Shown: positions 52,650 to 62,853, counted from the stretch's first letter. The stretch: DNA of 64,000 nucleotides from an uncultured Nitrososphaeraceae archaeon (GCA_963779615.1 CAVZZA010000001.1:352001-416000); one strand, 5' to 3'. Notes: generated by a model from the letters alone, not told the origin. Made by a program: numbers and translations.

Positions 52650-52907
52650 AAGATAGTAGGTTAAACTGTAGGATATTAATTTTTTTTGTAAAATGAGGTT
52701 TTTATGCCAATGAAACTAGCCAAACCCAACCAACCAACCAACCAAACCAGAAGGCAAATCGGACATAGGCTCTTTGTGAGGAACTAGATCATTTGCAATA
52801 AAAAAGCAAAACATCCCCAAACAACCTTTCAATTAAATCATGGAAAACCAATGGGCAATAGCATAAGTTTAAAAAGATATTACAGTGAATCTAGAAATGC
52901 GTCAAAG

Positions 52908-53031
52908 GCCGGGGTACCGAAGCTAGGTAAGCGTCAAAGGCCCTAAAAGGGGTCAGCCTCGAGATCACACAAAAAAAAATAAGACAGCTGATGTCCTCTT
53001 GGACTCGTGGGTTCAAGTCCCACTCCCGGCG
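52908..53031 (+). tRNA. tRNA-Ser(CGA) with two introns (D-loop 52930-52947; canonical 37/38 52964-52985)
   Basis: GCCGGGG/TCCCGGC-G, TCAGC-CTCGAG^A-GCTGA, variable arm GTCC-TCTT-GGAC, GTGGG-TTCAAGT-CCCAC; BHB TAGG/CCTA with TAA and AAA bulges. Confidence 0.9.
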
Positions 53032-53182
53032 CCCTACTTGTGAATTCTTTCACTAATCTTAAATATTCAGACGAATTACGTTATAATGTCTGGATTGGTA
53101 TCTACTGAAGAAAATTGCAATTAGCTAATAGGTTTACAATTTCTAAAATAGCAATAAATATGATTTATATCCATTTTTTGTA

Positions 53183-53911
53183 ATGATAGACAAGAAATTA
53201 TCGCTTATTACCATTCATGATGTAAACCCCTCATGCGCCGAAAAATTGCAAATAATAACAGATGAACTCAACAAGTTAAATGTAAAATACAATCTAAGTA
53301 TTGTTCCGAATTACAATAAAAAGCATAATTTGAAGGATAACCCTGCTTTTTGTAATCAAATATCTACGTTACTACAATCAGATAATATAGAACTCACTTT
53401 ACATGGGCTATACCATCAAATAGATGGAAAAATGGAAGATTTTGATTCCCAATCAAAAGAGGAAGAAATAAAAGATATAAAACAAGGTTTAGATATCCTA
53501 TCTTCAGTAAAGCTGCCAACACCTTCAACATTTATACCACCAGCATGGTATTTGAGCCGCCAAGCTATAGAAGCACTAAAGGATTATGAATTTGATATAG
53601 CAGAGGCAAGGTCGGATTTAGAATTCATAAAGAGGGGCAAGAAGTATATAATTTCCCCGGTTATGAATTGGGACCAACAGGGAGACAAAGAAAAAAACAA
53701 AAAAATATTGGATCCGAATAAAAAAGAGTTTTACACTCATTTGTTTAATATTGGTGGAGAGTCATATGGACTGTTTAGGATGGCCATTCATCCTCCGTAT
53801 GATCCTGACGGTGCATTAGCAGATCAGATTGAAATGATAAAATATCTAAAAGAAAAAGAAGGCTATAATTTTGTTAACTATTCTGACTTAGTTCAAATAG
53901 AGGAATCCTGA
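53183..53911 (+). CDS. polysaccharide deacetylase-like protein (DUF2334)
   Basis: TIHDVNP, LHGLYH, FIPPAW, RMAIHP. Confidence 0.85.
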   Translation: MIDKKLSLITIHDVNPSCAEKLQIITDELNKLNVKYNLSIVPNYNKKHNLKDNPAFCNQISTLLQSDNIELTLHGLYHQIDGKMEDFDSQSKEEEIKDIKQGLDILSSVKLPTPSTFIPPAWYLSRQAIEALKDYEFDIAEARSDLEFIKRGKKYIISPVMNWDQQGDKEKNKKILDPNKKEFYTHLFNIGGESYGLFRMAIHPPYDPDGALADQIEMIKYLKEKEGYNFVNYSDLVQIEES

Positions 53912-53970
53912 CTACTTAAAGCCCTGTATTGTCAAAATTAATATTCTATATCCATATATCCCCTTAGTAT

Positions 53971-54411
53971 TTGGTAACCATACGTGAAATAGAAAATGAG
54001 GATATAGATAGAGGGTTTTTGGAGGTCCTAGATAATTTACTTTCTCCGGACATTGATAATAAAACTGCTAAAAACATATTAAAAGAAATAAAATCAAATC
54101 CATTGCATAAAACATTCATTGCAAAAGATGATGTAACCGATAAAATAGTAGGAACAACAACATTGCTTGTAGAGCCTAAATTTATCAATAAAGGTATGAT
54201 AGTAGGATATATCGAAGATGTGTCGATAAATAAGGACTATGAAGGATTAGGAATTGGACGGCAAATTGTGGATCATGTAACTAATTACGCCAAAACAATA
54301 CAACAATGCAAAAAAGTAATACTATACTGTTCAGAAAAGAATAAGCCATTCTATGAAAAGTTGGGCTACAAGTCAGCTAATGATACATTTGTTATGACGT
54401 TAGAATTTTAA
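53971..54411 (+). CDS. GNAT acetyltransferase (glucosamine-6-phosphate N-acetyltransferase-like)
   Basis: EPKFI, GYIEDV, EGLGIG, KVILYCSEKNKPFYEKLG. Confidence 0.88.
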   Translation: MVTIREIENEDIDRGFLEVLDNLLSPDIDNKTAKNILKEIKSNPLHKTFIAKDDVTDKIVGTTTLLVEPKFINKGMIVGYIEDVSINKDYEGLGIGRQIVDHVTNYAKTIQQCKKVILYCSEKNKPFYEKLGYKSANDTFVMTLEF

Positions 54412-54822
54412 TCTATTTTGGCATACCCTAGACAAAAGAAAATAAAACATCCTTCAATAACATAGTTATTAGAATAAATTAAGTTTTTACTTAAACTAAT
54501 AATGATCTCAAATATTGATTGGAATTGCTTAAACCTATCCAATAAGAATGCCCTATTTTTGGACTACATTCGGTTCAAGTATTATATAATAATTGAATTC
54601 CAATTTATCCCCTATTATTAAAAATTTGCAATATATGTCAACCTATTGTATGTTCTCAACCAAGTTTCAATGTTATCAATTGTTTTCAATCTGTTGTATC
54701 ACTCCCATCAACCTCCAAGCATTAATCAATTAGCCATATAATCAACTTTTTTGATTTTTTCATTTTTTAAAAAGCAATACGATTTATCTCCTCATCTAAT
54801 GACGTACTAAAATATAATAGGA

Positions 54823-55884
54823 ATGATAACGAGATATGTCCTTATGAGTATCAATAATATCAATAATTATTTATTTCAAAATCAAACTATTATCAATCTT
54901 TACGAATCAGGCATTCCGTCAGATGTTATTGCCTCTCAGCTAGATATAAACACAGTGGATGTTATGGATACACTCACAAATAGACAGAAGGACATCAAAA
55001 GAAAGGAAAAATCAGTTATGGATGCATCCTTAACACCAAAAATAGGAATGATGTATTTAGACTCAGTTTTTGATGTGGAGTCTGCGATAAAGGAAACCCA
55101 AAAAAGAATATGGAGGGAATTAAAAGTGGAGCCAAAGTTCAGCATACCTTTAGAAAGCTCCAATGGACTGCTCGAGAAATTTGTGAATACCAATGTAGAC
55201 CTTGTAATTCTATATGTTGATTTGGTAAGTTCTACAAAGCTTTCTATGAATTTGCCCTTGAAGAGATTGGCTCCAATAATACAAGCGTTTACCCAAGAAA
55301 TGTCTATTATTGTAGACGCATACGGGGGTTATGTCCTTAAATATGTAGGAGATGCGGTAATAGCTTTCTTTTTCACAGAAAAGGATAATTTGCATTTGCC
55401 CTGTATTAATGCAGTTAATTGCGGGTATTCCATGGTAAAGATCATAAATGAAGGCATAAACCCTATTTTGGAAGAATACGGCTATCCCGAATTAGGCATA
55501 AGAGTTGGCATTGATGTGGGTGAAAATGCAGTAGTTCAATATGAGTTCAAAACAAAGACATATGATATTGCTGAAGAACAGAATCTAAAGGAAAATGCAT
55601 TGAATAATGACCGTAACAAAAAATATAATACAAATACATTGCAGGAGCCGCATTTGGATGTTTTAGGATATACAATTAATATTGCGACAAAAATGACATC
55701 GTTTGCAAGTCCAAATCAAATCATTATCGGAGAAGCGGTATACGATAAATTAGATGGTAAAAAGCAAAATCGATTCAATAAATTACACATCGATAACAAA
55801 TCATGGAATTTCCTAGATACTACTACTGGAAATATTTATGGCGTATATGGTAATTCAGTGCAATTTCCAAATGTATACGAATGA
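54823..55884 (+). CDS. class III adenylate/guanylate cyclase
   Basis: YVDLVSST, KYVGDAV, IRVGID, LDVLGYTINIATKM. Confidence 0.9.
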   Translation: MITRYVLMSINNINNYLFQNQTIINLYESGIPSDVIASQLDINTVDVMDTLTNRQKDIKRKEKSVMDASLTPKIGMMYLDSVFDVESAIKETQKRIWRELKVEPKFSIPLESSNGLLEKFVNTNVDLVILYVDLVSSTKLSMNLPLKRLAPIIQAFTQEMSIIVDAYGGYVLKYVGDAVIAFFFTEKDNLHLPCINAVNCGYSMVKIINEGINPILEEYGYPELGIRVGIDVGENAVVQYEFKTKTYDIAEEQNLKENALNNDRNKKYNTNTLQEPHLDVLGYTINIATKMTSFASPNQIIIGEAVYDKLDGKKQNRFNKLHIDNKSWNFLDTTTGNIYGVYGNSVQFPNVYE

Positions 55885-56660
55885 TAACCATATCCATGCT
55901 ATAAAATTTACTCAATCTAATGGAATATCCGGATTCCCAAATGAATAGAAAAAGAAGTAAAGTTCCTCATAATATTTGGCATTTAATGTATTTAGGCATT
56001 TATTGAATAAATCCAAATACATTTCATAAAATATGGGCTGAAGACTATATAATTCAGATCATTAGGGCATTTATTGCAACCATTGATAAATTATTCAATT
56101 ATTTGCATAACCAGTAAATATTTTGGATTTTATAAGGTAATCGGGCAACGACAAATCTGAACAAAAGCCTTACTCACGTTAATTTTTAAATGTAATGTAG
56201 AATTATGTCAAATAACCTTCTTAGTCATGCAGATAAACTTACTAGTTTAGGTTTCCATTCATTGTTCAATCACATCCCACTCGGTCCACTTATGGTACTA
56301 ATATACGTTCACAAGAATAATGATATATCAACAATGCCTTACAACTCAATGGAATTAGATCTCTTTACTGGTTTCAAATGCCATAAGGTCCACTCAAACG
56401 AAACAGAGACATTAAGAAGATTGGTGATATTTTTTGATTTTATTGCTACCACAAGTTAATCTAAATGAAGGATGTAAAATTTTTATAAAAGACAGCCAAG
56501 AGAATGCAATTTATCCATTGTACACTACTTTTCAATTGTATATATCAAAAAGAAAGACTAGAAGGATCCAATTAGAGAATCAAGGTTAAATCCTGTATTT
56601 ATTGGATAACTGCATTAATGACTATACCAATATGATAATTGAGAACTAGGTGAATATATT

Positions 56661-56701
56661 TTCATAAATCCTTGAATGCAAATATATGGTTCAAATCCTA
56701 T
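56661..56701 (+). repeat. att-like repeat copy R1 (arm + tRNA T-loop)
   Basis: 35/41 ungapped identity to 57221-57261. Confidence 0.8.
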
Positions 56702-56733
56702 TCTCTCTTTTTATGTTAATAGGTATAATAGAC

Positions 56734-56778
56734 GAATATGCGAGTATACTATATGGATTCAAGTCCTAATCTTCGTCC
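56734..56778 (+). repeat. att-like repeat copy R2
   Basis: 26/33 ungapped identity of 56734-56766 to 62398-62430. Confidence 0.7.
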
Positions 56779-56900
56779 ATAGTTTGATTATCTAAAAACA
56801 AGTTTGGAGCATTAGTTACCATACACATTAACAATCATTATAATCACGACAAAGATGATAGAATTAGAATGGGATGAAATGGTATTTAGATTTTCTTTTT

Positions 56901-57089
56901 CTATTTCATATCCACGCCTATAATTCCCCCGTTTCCCCAATTCTCTTTGGAAATCTCATAGATCAAGATTCTTACCTTTTCCTCTTGTGTTTGCATAATC
57001 CTAGCGGTCTCTCTTGTCAACGCCTTGATCAACTCTCTCTTCTGCTCTACAGATCTTCCTTGGCTTATAGTAATTTCAATTACAGGCAT
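56901..57089 (-). CDS. 4-oxalocrotonate tautomerase family protein
   Basis: MPVIEI (catalytic Pro1), GRSVEQKREL, ENWGNGG. Confidence 0.92.
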   Translation of the reverse strand: MPVIEITISQGRSVEQKRELIKALTRETARIMQTQEEKVRILIYEISKENWGNGGIIGVDMK

Positions 57090-57220
57090 TTTTATCATTT
57101 ATTTTAAAATTATTTATTATTATATTATCCCCTGTTTTTACAACAGGGGTTCAGGCCCTGCTCCCTAAGAATATTTTAAATGACTAGACTAACACGATAA
57201 TTGAAAATTAAATAACATAC

Positions 57221-57268
57221 TTCATAAACCCGTGAATGCAAGTAGAAGGTTCAAATCCCATGCCTCCA
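57221..57268 (+). repeat. att-like repeat copy R3
   Basis: AAACCCGTGAAT-N10-GGTTCAAATCCCA. Confidence 0.85.
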
Positions 57269-57395
57269 TTGTGTACCCTATATTTACATAACAGGAAAAC
57301 AAGAGAGGTTATGACAATCAAGTATGGCAATTCATGCCCACTAAACTATGAACTACTACTTTATTTAAATAATATTTTTATTTGATTTATTTCAG

Positions 57396-58421
57396 ATGCA
57401 AGTAGGAATTGACAGTTTTGCGGCTTTTCATAATGATACCAAGAAATCAGTAAGCTCATCCGAACGCTTGCAAAGATTGGTTGAACAAATTGAACGGGCC
57501 GATCAAATTGGATTGGACGTATTTGGAGTAGGCGAGCATCACCGTCAGGGATTCCTTGATTCTGCTCCAGCCGTCATCCTGGGAGCGGCGGCAGCACGAA
57601 CTAAACGCATACGCCTCACCAGTGCAGTAACGGTATTGAGTGCAGCCGATCCAGTAAGGGTGTTCCAAGAATTCGCAACTTTGGATCTCCTGTCTCAAGG
57701 TAGGGCGGAGATGGTAGTGGGTCGCGGCTCATTCATAGAGGCATTCCCATTGTTTGGCCTGAGGTTGGATGACTACGACTCCCTTTTTTCAGAGAAGATA
57801 GATTTGCTCTTAAAGGTTCGTGACAATGAGCATGTCCATTGGTCCGGCAAATATCGACCTCCTCTAACTGGACAGGGAATCTATCCAAGGCCGATGCAGG
57901 AGCCTCTGCCGATATGGATAGGCGTGGGTGGAACTCCGGAATCTTTTGTTAGGGCTGGCTTACTAGGGTTACCACTGATGGTCGCAATTATCGGCGGCGA
58001 AACTCGCAGTTTCAAACCATTAATAGATCTCTACAGAGAGGCAGGAAAAAGGGCCGGCCATTTACCACATAAGCTGAAGGTTGGGATACATTCACTTGGA
58101 TATGTAGCAGGGAGCACTCAAAAGGCGGTTGATGACTTTTTTCCAGGCTATGCACGCAGCATGAACGAAATCGGAAAGGAACGCGGCTGGCCTCCGATAA
58201 CCCGTATGGATTTTGAAGCCCAGCGGGGTCCCAACGGCGCGCTACTCATAGGCAATCCGGAAGAAGTTACAGAGAAAATCATCAGACACAGTCAAGGCCT
58301 CGGTGGTATATCTCGCATTACTTTCATGATGAACCCCGCATCGTTACCTCACGAAAAGCTCATGCAAGCTACGGAATTAATAGGTTCACGCGTAGTTCCT
58401 GTCCTACATGAACTCGGTTAA
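57396..58421 (+). CDS. luciferase-like (LLM class) flavin-dependent oxidoreductase
   Basis: GVGEHHR, LTSAVTVLSAADPVRV, GRGSFIE, GVGGTPES; visibly GC-richer than the host. Confidence 0.93.
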   Translation: MQVGIDSFAAFHNDTKKSVSSSERLQRLVEQIERADQIGLDVFGVGEHHRQGFLDSAPAVILGAAAARTKRIRLTSAVTVLSAADPVRVFQEFATLDLLSQGRAEMVVGRGSFIEAFPLFGLRLDDYDSLFSEKIDLLLKVRDNEHVHWSGKYRPPLTGQGIYPRPMQEPLPIWIGVGGTPESFVRAGLLGLPLMVAIIGGETRSFKPLIDLYREAGKRAGHLPHKLKVGIHSLGYVAGSTQKAVDDFFPGYARSMNEIGKERGWPPITRMDFEAQRGPNGALLIGNPEEVTEKIIRHSQGLGGISRITFMMNPASLPHEKLMQATELIGSRVVPVLHELG

Positions 58422-58531
58422 ATCGATCGAAAGCATAGTTTTCGACGCGACAATAAAATTTCGAAGCGTACATTTAATATTTGAAACAGCCATTTAATTC
58501 GTCTTTTTATTTGTATTGGTATACATATATC

Positions 58532-58573
58532 AAACCCGTGAATAAAAGATGGTTCAAATCCCACCCTATTCCA
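58532..58573 (+). repeat. att-like repeat copy R4
   Basis: AAACCCGTGAAT-N7-GGTTCAAATCCCA, both blocks identical to R3. Confidence 0.85.
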
Positions 58574-58589
58574 CCTGTAACTCTATTAC

Positions 58590-58892
58590 CAGATTATTGG
58601 TTGATTGAATTCCATTCAAATGAGAAGGTTTGTATAAATCTGTTTGATGCAATCATGGAAAATTTTAATGTACGACTCCATGATTATACAGTATGGAGTC
58701 CCAACCTTCAGCATCATTAAGCTGAAAGATCTATATGCCTAAAGCTCCATGTCTTTTAAACATATGAGTTGCATTTTTAATAATCGATACCATTTTATCG
58801 CGATTCTTTTTTGGTAACCGGTGTATTGTTATTAAATTATGTTTTCTATTTGTAAGTTCTTCTTCTGGCAGAGTTAAATTTAGATCACTCAT
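58590..58892 (-). pseudogene. DUF1428-like gene remnant
   Basis: ATG overlapping the SRPBCC end; HRLPKKNRDKMV...MFKRHGALGI*IFQL, in-frame TAG at 58731-58733. Confidence 0.55.
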
Positions 58893-59349
58893 TACTTCCA
58901 TTTACCTCCGTCTTAATAAAATTCTCAAGTCTTTTGACATACCAATCCCAGCCCTCATTGTGCTCATCATATTGCAACCGATCCGCATTTGTAAACCCGC
59001 TATGGGTTAAAGTTAATTTCGTTTTATCCCTCTCTAGTTGATAAAGCTTCCAGGTAACAATAGTGTCTTTACTGTAATCAGGTTTTGTTGTAAATTTCCA
59101 AGTGTAAGATAGCTCTTTATTTGGGATGATACTAATAATTGTTCCAACAACATCATGATCTTTTTTTTCTTTTGTAACTTCCTTTGAAAACCTAAAAAAT
59201 ATTTTTCCTCCAACTCGTGGTTCTACGGTTGCTATGTTGGGGAACCACTGAGCCAGCCGCTCAGGGTTAATTAGAGCTGAATACACTTTGTCCACCGATG
59301 CATTTATTACTATTTCTTTTTTGATTGTGTCATAATCTGTATCATTCAT
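58885..59349 (-). CDS. SRPBCC/AHA1-like ligand-binding protein
   Basis: INASVDKVYSAL...QWF, LSYTW, TKLTLTH, GWDWY. Confidence 0.92.
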   Translation of the reverse strand: MNDTDYDTIKKEIVINASVDKVYSALINPERLAQWFPNIATVEPRVGGKIFFRFSKEVTKEKKDHDVVGTIISIIPNKELSYTWKFTTKPDYSKDTIVTWKLYQLERDKTKLTLTHSGFTNADRLQYDEHNEGWDWYVKRLENFIKTEVNGSNE

Positions 59350-59672
59350 CCCTTTTCCTTTTCCTTTTCCTTATTACTTGTATTCTCTACAAACTCTTTA
59401 AGATTTTCGAGACTATGCCCCCACATTTTATCAAAAAAATCCTTTATTTCTATAGTTGTTTTAGGGTTAATTGAATACCTTTTTTTCTGTCCCTCTCTGG
59501 TTTCCTTTATCAGGTCTGCATCCTTTAAAATCCTTAAATTGGTAGATACAGCAGCCAACGTTGTATCAAAATGCTTGGCTATCTCTGAAGGATACATTTC
59601 GTGTTCCCTTAGTAGCAATAAAATTCGCCTTCTATTATCTTCAGCTAGCGCTTTCCAAAGCGAACCTGTCAT
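59346..59672 (-). CDS. ArsR/SmtB family regulator
   Basis: KALAEDNRRRILLLL, AAVSTNLRILKDADLI, GQKKRYS. Confidence 0.92.
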   Translation of the reverse strand: MTGSLWKALAEDNRRRILLLLREHEMYPSEIAKHFDTTLAAVSTNLRILKDADLIKETREGQKKRYSINPKTTIEIKDFFDKMWGHSLENLKEFVENTSNKEKEKEKG

Positions 59673-59697
59673 TATAATAATAAAATAGTTGTATAGT

Positions 59698-59715
59698 TAT
59701 TTAAATATTTAAATA
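59698..59715. promoter_or_regulatory. perfect 18-bp palindrome TATTTAAATATTTAAATA (divergent TATA boxes/operator)
   Basis: lies between divergent arsR and DUF899 starts. Confidence 0.55.
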
Positions 59716-59737
59716 TAATCGATTCTATCTTATCCCA

Positions 59738-60496
59738 ATGTCTATAGAAGAGCAAAAAGAAAGAAATGAAAATGACGAAAGGAATGTCTTTGATAATCAT
59801 AAAATTGTTTCGCAAAGTGAATGGATGGAAGCTCGCAAAGATCTATTAACAAAAGAAAAAGAATTTACCATTCTACGTGATCAACTTAATCAAAAGATAC
59901 GAGACCTGCCATGGGTCCAAGTTGATAAAGAGTATGTATTTGATGGACCCACCGGAAAACAAACTTTGTCAGAACTTTTTGATGGCAGAAGTCAATTAAT
60001 TGTATATCATTTTATGTATGGTCCTAGTTGGGATGCAGGATGCCCATCATGTTCCTTTTGGGCAGATAACTTTAACGGAATAGGTATGCATTTGAACCAA
60101 AGAGACGTTACTATGATAGTCGTGTCCAGAGCACCCTATAACAAGATAGATGCATACAAGAAACGCATGGGTTGGAAGTTTAAGTGGGTTTCTTCTTACG
60201 ACTCTGACTTCAATTTCGACTACCATGTATCTTTCACACAGGAAGAGTTAGATAAGAAGGAAGCCTTCTACAACTATATTGCACAAGACACACAAAGTCC
60301 AGAGAAGGAGGGAGTCAGCGTATTTTTCAAAGACCATGAAGGTCGTGTGTTTCACACCTATTCAACATATGCGCGCGGCATCGACATGTTGAATGTGGCA
60401 TATAACTACCTTGACCTAGTTCCCAAGGGACGAGATGAGGCAAATAACGAATTTCGCCAATATTGGGTTCGCCGTCATGATGAATATGGCAAATAA
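59738..60496 (+). CDS. DUF899 thioredoxin-like protein
   Basis: KEKEFT, LFDGRSQLIVYHFM, GCPSCS, HTYSTYARG, WVRRHDEY. Confidence 0.93.
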   Translation: MSIEEQKERNENDERNVFDNHKIVSQSEWMEARKDLLTKEKEFTILRDQLNQKIRDLPWVQVDKEYVFDGPTGKQTLSELFDGRSQLIVYHFMYGPSWDAGCPSCSFWADNFNGIGMHLNQRDVTMIVVSRAPYNKIDAYKKRMGWKFKWVSSYDSDFNFDYHVSFTQEELDKKEAFYNYIAQDTQSPEKEGVSVFFKDHEGRVFHTYSTYARGIDMLNVAYNYLDLVPKGRDEANNEFRQYWVRRHDEYGK

Positions 60497-60808
60497 CCGC
60501 TATCCATCAATTCTCTCAAACGATATCTTCATTTAATTTTTACTTTTGTATAATTATAATTGACTTTCCTTTCCTAATGCGGACAACCTAATTCTAAAAG
60601 GTTTGTTCTAATGAGAAAGACATCGAGAGATTTTGATACTTTGTCAAACGAAACCACTTTTTAGTATAGGGTATAGATAAGAAATAGATTCAGAAATACA
60701 GGTCCAATATACCATAAGAAGAAAAAGAATTTCCAGGTATTATGTTGACTAAAAATCAAACCTTGTAGTCATTATTTTCTCCCTGATCATATCCTTTTTC
60801 ATCTTAGC

Positions 60809-61158
60809 AAGCATATCAACTGCTCCTTTGGCATTATTGTAAAAGTTATGATGTTTGGAAAAAGATTTGAAATTAATGTGTCAAATTTAGGTTTCAAGTA
60901 ACTGGCCCATTGGATTTTAGATAAAATTATTTTATATTATATTTACAAACCAGCAAATTTCGTGTAATTAAAAAAAGATTTTATTTAGAAGCATATCAAC
61001 TGCTCCTTTGGCATTATTGTAAAAGTTATGATGTTTGGAAAAACATTTGAAATTAATGTGTCAAATTTATGTTTCAAGTAACGGGCCCATTGAATTTTAG
61101 ATAAAACTATTTTATATTATATTTACAAACCAACAAAATTTCGTGTAATTAAAAAAAG
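60809..61158. repeat. tandem duplication of ~170 bp (period 180)
   Basis: AAGCATATCAACTGCTCC...CGTGTAATTAAAAAAAG at 60809-60977 and 60989-61158, few substitutions. Confidence 0.95.
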
Positions 61159-61217
61159 GAGTGAAAAATTATTTTGGGATTCATCCTTATTTATTATTTA
61201 ATCCACATTACCTTTCG

Positions 61218-62107
61218 TTATACCCTGTTGGTATTTTTGTAGGTTTGGGTTTCCCCCTCTCCTATGGTACCTGCGGCGGTATGCGGACCCACTTGACTGC
61301 AGCCACCTTCAAATCCATCAGCAACGAATGTGACTCCTGAGGCAAATTCACTTAGGCCATAGTCTCCGCCCTTAATGTAACGGTGGACAATTCTCGTCAC
61401 CTAGGAATGTGTTGGGATCAGCACTGGAAGCAGGAAAAACTAAAAATGTAAAGTCCGAAGGCTGCACATTGCTCCCCGTTGGGTCGACTACCTCCTTGCA
61501 AACGTTTAAGGTTGCTATTGATTCTGGCTTGATGGTGTTGACAATGGTAATGTGGGTTTCCCCTTCTGATATGTTGCCGATGAAGGTTACCCTTGTAGAA
61601 ATACTGCAGTCACCTGATATACTTAGTAAAATTTATGCCTGCTGAGCCTGTTTCGGAAAACTCATATTGACTTGAGGCTGCCGTGACTGCATCACAATTC
61701 TCGTCACCTAGGAATGTGTTGGGATTTGCAAGTGTGCTAAGAGTGAACTTAAAGTCCGAAGGCTGCAAATTTCTCCCTGTTGGGTCGACTACCACTTTGC
61801 AAACGTTCAAGTTCGTTGTTGTTGTTGTTAGTTTAGTTTCATTGCCCGTCTCGGGGGATGAAGCAGCAGACGTTACGGTGTTGGTGCTCTGATCGTTAAA
61901 TCCATTTACCGAGTTATCGTTTCCCTGGACAAGGGGTCCCTCATTCGATTGTCGGCATTCCTCGGATGTGTTACAAAGGTTACCCTGGCTTGAATGCAAA
62001 TCAGAATATGATTGCATGACAGTGATGCTTGTTCCTGCAAATAATAATGATATTACTGCAAATATCATGAGTAAATAATTTAAATTACGCATATAACAAA
62101 ATACCAA
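61218..62107 (-). pseudogene. secreted protein with two internal beta-sandwich (SpaA/prealbumin-like) repeats, frameshifted at least twice
   Basis: signal peptide; LNVCK.VVDPTG...QPSDF.F...PNTFLGDENC present twice; breaks near 61620 and 61380. Confidence 0.7.
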
Positions 62108-62396
62108 AATATGTCATAATATATTTGAGGTAAGTAGATTACTATGTCAATTTTTTTAGGAGTTTATCAAACTGAAAAGAATTGCATACTAAAATGATAT
62201 GGATCTAATATCAAATATTTGATATGTAGTTTAACTATGTTTTAACGATGTGATTGTTTCACCATTTTAATGTATAGTGATTAAAGGGATTATCATATTT
62301 ACAGAAACCCTCTAACAAAGCTTCAATCTGATATCCTTCACAATTATCTTGTTATCAACATAATGGTGAGATTTAGTATAATAATTTTTTTATATA

Positions 62397-62440
62397 TGAA
62401 TCGGTGAGTATAGGGTATGGCTTCAAGTCCCACTCCTGGC
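62397..62440 (+). repeat. att-like repeat copy R5 (attR-like duplicate of tRNA-Ser(CGA) 3' end)
   Basis: TGGcTTCAAGTCCCACTCCtGGC vs tRNA TGGGTTCAAGTCCCACTCCCGGC. Confidence 0.85.
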
Positions 62441-62559
62441 CTCAAAGATGTGTTCTTCCCATATTGTTAAATACCCAAAAGGCGAAAACTGCAATAGTTG
62501 AATCTTCATAACATTTCCAACACTCTTCAATATGAGACTGTACCTGAAACAAATCACAC

Positions 62560-62853
62560 AGATTTGAAAGGAAAATAGATTCCATAACAAAAACTATACC
62601 AAAACCTTATTTTAAAAAACACCAATAAAACTTTTAGAGAATATCCCAACCAACACCAAAATAATTTATGAGTATATTATTGCAGAACAAACCGAATTAA
62701 GTATCAAGGATTCTACTAAGGTAGGCAAGACAAAGATATTAGTTTGGCTTTCAAATTTTCATGAAAATAGTCCTTTAAAGAAGTGACCAAGCAGGAATAA
62801 TTGAATATTTCAACAATTTGCGAAAATCAAATGAAGAATCCCCTGCAATATAA
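62560..62853 (+). pseudogene. N-terminal relic of a Nitrososphaerales-type tyrosine integrase
   Basis: joined frames RFERKIDSITKTIPKPYF / KIIYEYIIAEQTELSIKDSTKVGKTKILVWLSNFHEN / SFKEVTKQ / IIEYFNNLRKS; recalled family similarity, no catalytic domain seen. Confidence 0.7.

Follow-up and report, generated by a model that had tools for sequence, protein, structure and literature searches.

An array of short repeat units and small gene blocks lies behind a tRNA-Ser(CGA) gene in the genome of an uncultured Nitrososphaeraceae archaeon. We analyzed this array in a stretch of 64,000 nucleotides (nt) of that genome (GCA_963779615.1 CAVZZA010000001.1:352001-416000), hereafter the window; coordinates are those of the window unless a contig (C1, C3 and so on) is named. 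The genome itself is labelled G000, its relatives G004-G046 and individual loci L014-L088. Each repeat unit is composed of an arm, a core resembling the T-loop of a tRNA and a tail of variable origin. From the comparison of these units with those of related genomes, we consider it probable that the array grew by accretion of elements belonging to a single integrase family, together with non-autonomous modules, and that it was eroded afterwards.

Repeat units and gene blocks behind tRNA-Ser(CGA)

The tRNA gene that anchors the array is interrupted twice. ARAGORN calls it as tRNA-Ser(cga) with a 22-nt canonical intron only after in-silico excision of a segment of 15-19 nt from the D-arm, and the unmodified gene is detected neither by ARAGORN nor by Rfam in gathering or E-value mode. 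With this excision, the tRNA-Ser(CGA) that a first-pass annotation of the window had placed upstream of the array is borne out. The gene is 75-88% conserved across the genus, where its synteny with the upstream neighbours is kept, and the G+C content (GC) drops from 0.42-0.47 upstream of it to 0.26-0.36 in the first gene block behind it. The arm remnant that directly follows the gene (Table 1) resembles the corresponding flank of relatives at about 9/14 positions by eye; in G012, this same flank is an 11-nt perfect inverted repeat of the arm found in the right attachment site (attR). An exact 12-nt direct repeat, one copy of which overlaps the tRNA 5' end (52901-52912) while the other lies inside the extra D-arm segment (52932-52943), may be connected to the non-canonical intron.

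Downstream of this gene, the T-loop motif GKNTTCAARTCCYA, with one mismatch allowed, occurs 7 times in the window against 1.0 expected. All occurrences lie on the + strand between 53,009 and 62,432, and the count is reached in 0 of 100 shuffles; the match at 56,370, which falls inside an open reading frame (ORF), is probably due to chance. With 2 mismatches allowed, the 12-mer arm by itself shows no enrichment (8 matches in the window, 7.2 expected), so the signal consists of arm and core together at a fixed spacing. The first-pass annotation had described five such units, R1 to R5, all on the + strand. Their coordinates are confirmed and the similarities given for them are reproduced exactly (35/41 identical positions for R1 and R3, 26/33 for R2 and R5, exact 12- and 13-mers shared by R3 and R4), and only 3 of 200,000 random window pairs reach even 25/41. 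All five units are real, but the count is incomplete.

A genome-wide scan for T-loop motifs outside tRNAs recovered the same design of arm, core and tail at other loci. Twenty-five units from 8 species align nearly without gaps and with a fixed distance between arm and core, and these units were used to build a covariance model (CM) based on sequence only. Its 8 best hits in the window (E < 0.2) are all on the + strand, between 53,005 and 62,439, and include two that were absent from the seed, at 58,672-58,708 (E 0.0066) and 57,123-57,166 (E 0.11). Hidden Markov models (HMMs) built exclusively from units of other species provide a non-circular test of the window units. The type-1 HMM finds R3 (2e-9), R4 (2e-5) and, more weakly, R1 (0.07); the type-2 HMM finds 58,670-58,706, here called R4b (5e-7), R5 (6e-7) and R2 (1e-3); the type-4 HMM finds 57,128-57,152 (5e-5 in the window, 0.0026 genome-wide). 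The resemblances of R1 to R3 and of R2 to R5 are thereby explained by two arm classes. At least seven units are supported in the window, namely six units and a seventh of another arm type. The arm of this seventh, type-4 unit (57128-57148) is a near-perfect palindrome, CCCTGT…ACAGGG, unlike arm types 1-3.

Two pairs of units, R1+R2 and R4+R4b, are composites in which a type-1 unit is followed by a second unit 70-140 nt further on. Two additional relics were noticed by eye, at about 57,310-57,353 ('R3b') and about 62,305-62,345 ('R5a'), and no model detects either of them. A homologue of 'R3b' is conserved together with the monooxygenase gene in five species, which makes 'R3b' a part of the monooxygenase module rather than a junction made here. 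Altogether this genome has 13 unit matches, 6 of which lie within 14 kb on one strand. The array extends past the window, with further units at C1 422,073, 423,427, 425,163 and about 426,520 and another integrase fragment to the right of the last of these.

Table 1. Features of the array in the window, listed from the tRNA anchor rightward.
Feature	Position	Strand	Basis and remarks
tRNA-Ser(CGA) gene, two introns (D-arm; 22-nt canonical position)	52908..53033	+	array anchor, site on the side of the left attachment site (attL)
Remnant of element right-hand arm (P'), directly after tRNA-Ser	53034..53047	+	read from sequence; no integrase behind
Block 1 (overall 53183..56459): DUF2334	53183..53911	+	ORF, Pfam
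Block 1: GNAT acetyltransferase	53971..54411	+	ORF, Pfam
Block 1: cyclase-domain protein	54823..55884	+	ORF, Pfam
Block 1: ORF of 84 amino acids (aa)	56205..56459	+	ORF
R1, type-1 (arm, T-loop core, degenerate Val-like tail); first half of composite right end	56664..56706	+	CM 27.5 bits
R2, type-2, non-tRNA 'C-tail' (…CTTCGTC); second half of composite, left boundary of block 2	56732..56782	+	CM 27.6 bits
Block 2: 4-oxalocrotonate-tautomerase-family gene, 65 aa	56901..57098	-	Pfam PF01361, 3.3e-12
Type-4 unit: palindromic arm, degenerate core, Ser-like tail	57123..57166	+	type-4 HMM; CM E 0.11
R3, type-1, Val-like tail	57224..57270	+	CM 33.8 bits; near-identical to attR of the genome's own tRNA-Val element
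Monooxygenase module: 'R3b' relic (by eye), conserved upstream region and ORF 57396-58421	57301..58441	+	
R4, type-1, arm-to-core spacer 3 nt shorter	58532..58575	+	CM 27.2 bits; homologous unit behind the monooxygenase gene in G021
R4b, type-2, C-type tail, core deletion of ~5 nt; left boundary of block 4	58670..58708	+	HMM 4.8e-7
Block 4: AHSA1/SRPBCC	58885..59349	-	Pfam
Block 4: ArsR	59346..59672	-	Pfam
Block 4: DUF899	59738..60496	+	Pfam
Secreted/surface-like gene, apparently disrupted	61218..62107	-	ORFs of 165 and 60 aa in different frames
R5, type-2, tRNA-Ser-like tail; junction of block 4 and decayed integrase-bearing element	62395..62443	+	CM 37.6 bits
Integrase pseudogene fragment (N-terminal region), tRNA-Val integrase family	62652..62847	+	tblastn

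For the cargo between the units, Pfam agrees with the tautomerase, luciferase-like monooxygenase (LLM), ArsR, SRPBCC and DUF899 assignments of the first-pass annotation, the monooxygenase with a match to PF00296 at 3e-54 and a GC of 0.49-0.51. Its 'surface gene', on the other hand, has no Pfam match and looks disrupted; it contains a 72-nt internal repeat at 86%. Between DUF899 and this gene, a non-coding segment of 152 nt is tandemly duplicated at 60809-61140 (95%, spacing 180 nt). In the block to the right of R5, beyond the window, there is a probable membrane-protein pseudogene of Pfam family Cons_hypoth698 (C1 about 417,150-418,640; L020 12350-13840), its coding sequence broken up into three overlapping frames.

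Single-gene blocks between related sites of the same orientation give the array a superficial likeness to an integron, and an integron-like organization had been suggested earlier. Such a platform would have a dedicated integrase at a primary site and promoterless cassettes with folded sites, served by a common promoter. We regard it as very improbable here. No integrase or attI-type site heads the array: between tRNA-Ser and R1 there is no integrase match, the first gene being DUF2334, and the sole match in the window is the fragment after R5. Genes occur in both orientations, with the tautomerase, SRPBCC and ArsR genes on the - strand, and the monooxygenase gene keeps its own upstream region, which is conserved with it in six species. 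Furthermore, the array is anchored by a tRNA gene, and its sites derive from the tRNA T-arm and have flanking arms. The integron comparison was accordingly dropped.

Integrase-bearing elements and the origin of the junctions

An element of 29 kb is integrated at tRNA-Val(TAC) in this genome (C1 489,816-518,706). Its attR is formed by a type-1 arm and a 23-bp match, without differences, to the part of the tRNA that runs from the T-loop to its 3' end. An intact integrase gene (C1 517,032-518,564), an open frame of 515 codons located 55 bp past the tRNA-Val gene, matches PF00589 at 27.5 bits (cut-off 27.1). Besides DUF5131 and a weak D12-methyltransferase-like match, the element has a CitMHS/ArsB-type transporter and a metallo-beta-lactamase-fold protein, and most of its backbone genes have no Pfam match. 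In G012, an integrase of 491 aa that is 56% identical to the tRNA-Val frame (PF00589 34.3 bits) lies beside the orthologous tRNA-Ser; arm, core and Ser tail follow 14.8 kb on, with 21 bp of identity starting from the T-loop. Integrases of this family are 490-515 aa long. In a three-sequence alignment inspected by eye, the R, R-H (H-x-x-R-type) and Y positions are invariant and a Cys4 ribbon is found at the C-terminus.

In both elements, the sequence past the tRNA 3' end recurs in inverted orientation as the arm to the left of the core (11/11 nt in G012, 11/12 nt in the Val element). The symmetry is centred on T-loop position 6/7 in each, and the inner distances differ (40 and 34 nt). The arm HMM independently matches the attL flank of the Val element in reverse orientation. 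Inverted arms of this kind are to be expected of a recombination site that has its centre in the T-loop. We infer that the crossover can be placed no more closely than within the block of 21-23 bp of identity, which is limited on the left by the start of the loop.

These inverted arms also bear on whether duplication of tRNA genes might instead have spread the units, which would then be pseudo-tRNAs, genes for tRNA fragments or small structured RNAs. Every unit indeed has a T-arm-like segment and an acceptor-like tail, and R2 has, as read from its sequence, a 5' segment of 6-7 nt complementary to the tail. Nevertheless, nothing in a tRNA corresponds to the arms, which in the intact elements mirror, as inverted repeats, what lies past the tRNA 3' end; the T-stems of R1, R3 and R4, read in the same way, are unpaired, no Rfam matches were found and the units co-occur with integrases. 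We therefore give this origin very little weight. We find it harder still to credit that the units are the ends of a transposon family or of miniature inverted-repeat transposable elements, despite their being a short repeat family with many copies per genome: copies are direct instead of inverted and point one way within the array, they lie downstream of tRNAs and share the tRNA 3' sequence, no transposase is associated with them and no target-site duplications occur in the sequences read.

An integrase gene or fragments of one lie directly to the right of tRNA-Ser in 7 of the 10 loci examined, intact in G012, as fragments in G011, G004, G020, G015 and G024 and as a 25-aa trace in G041; none was found in this genome, G018 or G007. 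The cargo downstream of tRNA-Ser is nearly wholly different between species, and varied cargo and integrases together identify the locus as a long-standing integration hotspot. In G008 (C40, L052), the insertion at tRNA-Ser is made up of an integrase gene alone (about 1.7 kb), immediately followed by a junction of arm, core and C-tail.

Within the window, the arm class of R1, R3 and R4 is that of the attR of the tRNA-Val element. The integrase fragment to the right of R5 shows 58% identity over 36 aa and 40% over 20 aa to the tRNA-Val integrase (E 1.9e-4) and 56% over 61 aa to the G012 integrase, and the tail of R5 agrees with the tRNA-Ser 3' end at about 19/23 positions by eye. Taken with the integrases found beside tRNA-Ser in relatives, these observations support the earlier proposal that a single element family integrated repeatedly at the T-loop.

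Each of the 34 genomes of the genus has the unit family (1-17 matches per genome), and 32 of the 34 have the integrase family, as intact genes and as many fragments. In an order-wide sample, units occur in 3/3 genomes of this genus and 2/2 of the sister genus and in 0 of the 75 other genomes sampled, of which 2 represent two other genera of the same family and 73 represent 19 other families. Scanning with the profile showed the units clustered downstream of tRNAs in one orientation, as had been anticipated, both here and in relatives. Arrays comparable to that of the window are common. In the tRNA-Ser array of the complete genome G041, 17/17 hits lie on one strand over 66 kb; this array contains only two tiny integrase traces, and an intact family integrase is 1.8 Mb away. 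No relative was found in viral contigs when these were scanned for free forms with one integrase and with a three-integrase alignment. A metagenome scan with the gene upstream of tRNA-Ser returned 7 loci, the closest (89%) on a contig of only 1.2 kb.

Other tRNA genes of this genome carry duplications of a different kind. On C3, long 3' parts of tRNA-Gly GCC are duplicated 19 kb apart (265,803/284,903) and those of tRNA-Glu CTC, called by ARAGORN, 6.4 kb apart (368,751/375,195). Both start near the anticodon arm, are without the family arm and are probably to be assigned to a second integrase family (426-462 aa), members of which also lie beside tRNA-Arg and tRNA-Ala.

Under the accretion model favoured here, lineage-specific integrative elements encoding a tyrosine recombinase of 490-515 aa with a C-terminal zinc ribbon would recombine at the T-loop of tRNA genes, in this genome Ser-CGA, Val-TAC and a Gly-CCC-type tail. 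Each integration would set the left end of the element, that is a tRNA-like tail, the right-hand arm and the integrase, beside the tRNA, and older insertions would be displaced outward by newer ones. The right-end junction left behind would comprise the element arm, the T-loop core and the tail of whatever stood to the right. Junctions of this kind would include R1-R5 and, in the window, two or more additional units. Block 1 and the block to the right of R5 would then represent decayed integrase-bearing elements, and the tautomerase and ArsR-SRPBCC-DUF899 blocks would have the ends of integrase-less modules. Such modules may have been joined into arrays at the T-loop core by the integrase of another family member, with ordinary deletions eroding the arrays later. 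The integrase would presumably bind the arms and, for these modules, would have to be supplied in trans.

Integrase-less blocks, their tails and the exchange of cargo between species

The units differ in their tails, which fall into three classes. The Ser 3' end, as in R5, tends to precede a right-hand arm and an integrase. The Val-like tail is always found on type-1 units that stand 60-140 nt before another unit (R1, R3 and R4). The non-tRNA C-tail is carried by R2, by R4b and by the unit at C1 422,073. This diversity probably stems from three sources: the 3' end of tRNA-Ser, a Val-like relic belonging to a double-core right end, and the C-tail of integrase-less blocks. The double-core right end, a type-1 unit placed 60-140 nt before a second unit, recurs at loci of 11 other species. 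It could be a relic of a Val-targeting ancestor, a putative accessory binding site or a second functional core.

With up to 2 mismatches, the C-tail pattern occurs 48 times in 19 of the 34 genomes and the reversed control 0 times. Its unambiguous 20-mer is exact in 12 species, and the tail of R2 differs from this genus-wide 20-mer by 2 mismatches. At the loci fetched, the C-tail always stands behind an element arm, and four different arm types were seen in this position. A tRNA origin of the C-tail was considered and rejected, a tRNA lying over the site in 0 of 30 loci. Among 29 C-tail loci from relatives, an integrase match within 1.5 kb to the right was found in 0; two C-tail loci have an integrase match to the left, which belongs to the neighbouring element. 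In the window, the blocks from R2 to the unit at 57,123 and from R4b to R5 are bounded by attachment (att) sites and contain no integrase match.

In one C-tail subfamily, the left end continues with another ~240 nt of shared non-coding sequence, behind which the cargo is unrelated. The window lacks this module; elsewhere in the genome, its inner 175 nt are found on C3 at 166,299-166,476, 821,693-821,867 and 967,963-968,144, all on the - strand and away from units. In relatives (L014, L036 and L040), the same conserved non-coding module of ~175 nt is one component of the left ends of blocks without an integrase; it could perhaps be a small RNA, an origin or a regulatory region.

Two comparisons indicate that these blocks have been rearranged at the cores. 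Two places in the G041 array share 996 bp at 99.6% identity, starting exactly at TTCGAG, and their left arms are of different types. Similarly, a stretch of 4.2 kb that is 86% identical between G004 and G044 opens with the first core base, and here too the left arms differ. An integrase-less block common to these two species (G044 C23 and G004 C5; L055/L060) has ORFs that look by eye like an aquaporin/MIP-type channel and an ArsC/low-molecular-weight phosphatase, a pair that would suggest arsenic resistance as putative cargo. Blocks of 0.35-6 kb recur in the arrays of many species.

The monooxygenase offers a further example. Members of its clade are 87-94% identical in amino-acid sequence and are located in such arrays wherever the contigs permit a check. 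At the nucleotide level, the module is 89-90% identical to G021, G044, G046, G020 and G013; by contrast, the gene upstream of tRNA-Ser is only 71% identical in G021, 68% in G013 and 64-75% in G020. In G011, homology is confined to the upstream region and the ORF. Taken together, these comparisons imply that recombination at cores repeatedly joined left ends to new neighbours and that cargo travels between species.

A number of observations weigh against this account of accretion and modular joining. The first-pass annotation had expected cargo boundaries to fall at the repeats. In two comparisons the left end of the shared segment does fall precisely on the T-loop, but in no comparison does a right-hand end coincide with a unit. 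The G041 duplication ends inside an ORF and not at a unit, and the homology between G004 and G044 stops about 0.6 kb before the next unit, the next units also having different arms. The monooxygenase segment shared by four species (57,301-57,320 to 58,441-58,454) touches neither R3 nor R4, its edges lying about 35 bp to the right of the tail of R3 and about 90 bp to the left of R4. In G021, homology continues through R4+R4b to 58,801 (93 bp beyond), and in G011 the monooxygenase gene and the unit next to it face opposite ways. The shared pieces, judged from these alignments, are not clean core-to-core cassettes, and ordinary deletions and rearrangements appear superimposed on them. In addition, the double-core right end is not predicted by simple tandem integration, and there is no intact family integrase in or beside the window array, the sole intact copy being 104 kb off with Val-type sites. 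Units are degenerate as well: R4b has lost part of its core, the core of the unit at 57,123 is degenerate and R1 is weak. As to the sampling, genomes of one genus are non-independent, and one neighbouring gene alone provides the baseline for 'core' divergence. With several of its units degenerate, the present-day mobility of the window array is doubtful; the sequence of R4b suggests that this unit is probably inactive, and the array is largely fossil.

Much of this would be accommodated if decay alone had produced the small blocks, which would then be deletion remnants of integrase-bearing elements of 15-30 kb; the C-tail would be what remains of the left end of an autonomous subfamily now extinct, and the integrase would have moved complete elements only. 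Elements that are still intact, of 14.8 and 29 kb, do exist, and signs of decay are plentiful, including the integrase fragments, the frameshifted membrane-protein gene past the window, the disrupted surface-like gene, the core-deleted unit, the G041 block truncated inside an ORF and the right-hand breakpoints away from units. We nonetheless judge this explanation rather unlikely as a complete account. An integrase or fragment lies to the right of 0 of 29 C-tail loci, compared with 7 of 10 tRNA-Ser sites, and blocks of 0.35-6 kb are recurrent in the arrays of many species. Moreover, 12 species retain the 20-mer unaltered, and it is found behind four arm types, a pattern that under decay would require many separate joins at the core together with some constraint on the tail.

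Accretion by integrase-family elements along with non-autonomous modules thus remains our preferred explanation. A stronger version of it, which we put forward tentatively and hold to be possible, is that integrase-less cargo modules of ~0.3-6 kb, starting with a C-tail and ending with a double core, are inserted, duplicated and shuffled at T-loop cores by integrases encoded elsewhere and constitute a gene-capture system of its own kind in two genera. In such a system, one subfamily may add the ~240-nt non-coding left end, arrays may grow to tens of kilobases, and single adaptive genes, for example the monooxygenase or the putative arsenic-resistance pair, may be exchanged between species. For the earlier suggestion of satellite cassettes mobilized in trans, the evidence points both ways: it is in line with the conserved 20-nt C-tail, the lack of an adjoining integrase and the starts at the T-loop, but the degenerate units and the deletion remnants present in the arrays speak against it.

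Comparison with known systems

Islands adjacent to tRNA genes are a main store of flexible genes, and their piecewise assembly is understood in a few bacterial systems and hardly in archaea. In the arrays described here, the junctions carry recognizable arms, which makes every earlier join readable; 30-odd species use the same tRNA, and single genes are seen moving between species within arrays. If modules are mobilized in trans, the system would represent, in archaea, a counterpart to integron cassettes, tycheposon cargo or cis-mobilizable elements (CIMEs), with a site architecture of inverted arms around the T-loop and a second core upstream. If the blocks are remnants only, the locus would be an ordinary fossil integration hotspot, of value for better annotation of att sites and of intron-bearing tRNAs. 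Our literature searches found no paper on Nitrososphaerales genomic islands with integrase and tRNA, and none on archaea among the tycheposon matches listed.

Integrons are ordered series of small gene blocks with related sites, built by a tyrosine recombinase at an attI site, read from a common promoter and separated by folded attC sites. The array differs from them in having no array-linked integrase, no attI and no common promoter, and in using double-stranded cores derived from tRNA; as for palindromes of the attC type, only the type-4 arm among the arms found here is itself palindromic.

Williams is said to have distinguished, in 2002, T-loop and anticodon-loop crossover classes among tRNA-targeting integrases. 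As in attP sites of the lambda type, the core described here lies in a symmetric tRNA arm and is accompanied by extra conserved element sequence on both sides. Unlike those sites, it has a simple pair of inverted arms centred on the T-loop, and a second full set of arm and core can occur 60-140 nt upstream.

In the accretion of streptococcal integrative and conjugative elements, CIMEs are integrase-less segments flanked by att sites that they share with an autonomous element, and tandem arrays arise through a resident att site. The present blocks are likewise bounded by att sites of an integrase family without having an integrase of their own. CIMEs are bacterial and conjugative, and their mobilization has been shown experimentally, whereas mobilization here is putative; the blocks are also smaller and more numerous, in arrays of up to 66 kb.

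Among archaea, the accessible text of one survey describes integrated elements of Thaumarchaeota that target tRNA genes, including intron-bearing ones, by means of tyrosine recombinases, with short att repeats and backbone genes of unknown function (PMC6563490, Krupovic et al. 2019). Archaeal tyrosine recombinases whose gene remains whole on integration are described in the available part of another report (PMC8371274), and tandem integration and loss of the integrase after integration are mentioned for archaea in what could be consulted of both (PMC6563490, PMC8371274). The family studied here resembles such whole-gene elements in that its PF00589 gene lies unsplit beside the tRNA and its att repeats include the 3' part of the tRNA. 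As far as their accessible text goes, the two sources (PMC6563490, PMC8371274) deal with whole multigene elements and not with long arrays of integrase-less blocks of 0.3-6 kb with arms at the junctions.

The closest description that we found is the tycheposon system of Prochlorococcus, as presented in the accessible part of its report. There, islands form next to tRNA genes by tyrosine-recombinase integration, newer elements pushing older ones inward to the island; neighbouring elements have nothing between them but an incomplete copy of the tRNA, fragmented integrases and partial tRNAs are scattered about, and the cargo consists of niche genes (10.1101/2020.12.28.424599). The array behind tRNA-Ser(CGA) similarly has a tRNA-proximal position, tandem elements split by partial tRNAs and scattered integrase fragments. 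It differs in its archaeal host, in an integrase that looks unrelated and in that no replication module was identified here. Beyond what that part of the tycheposon report describes, it adds non-tRNA inverted arms, double-core right ends and a conserved tail on integrase-less blocks.

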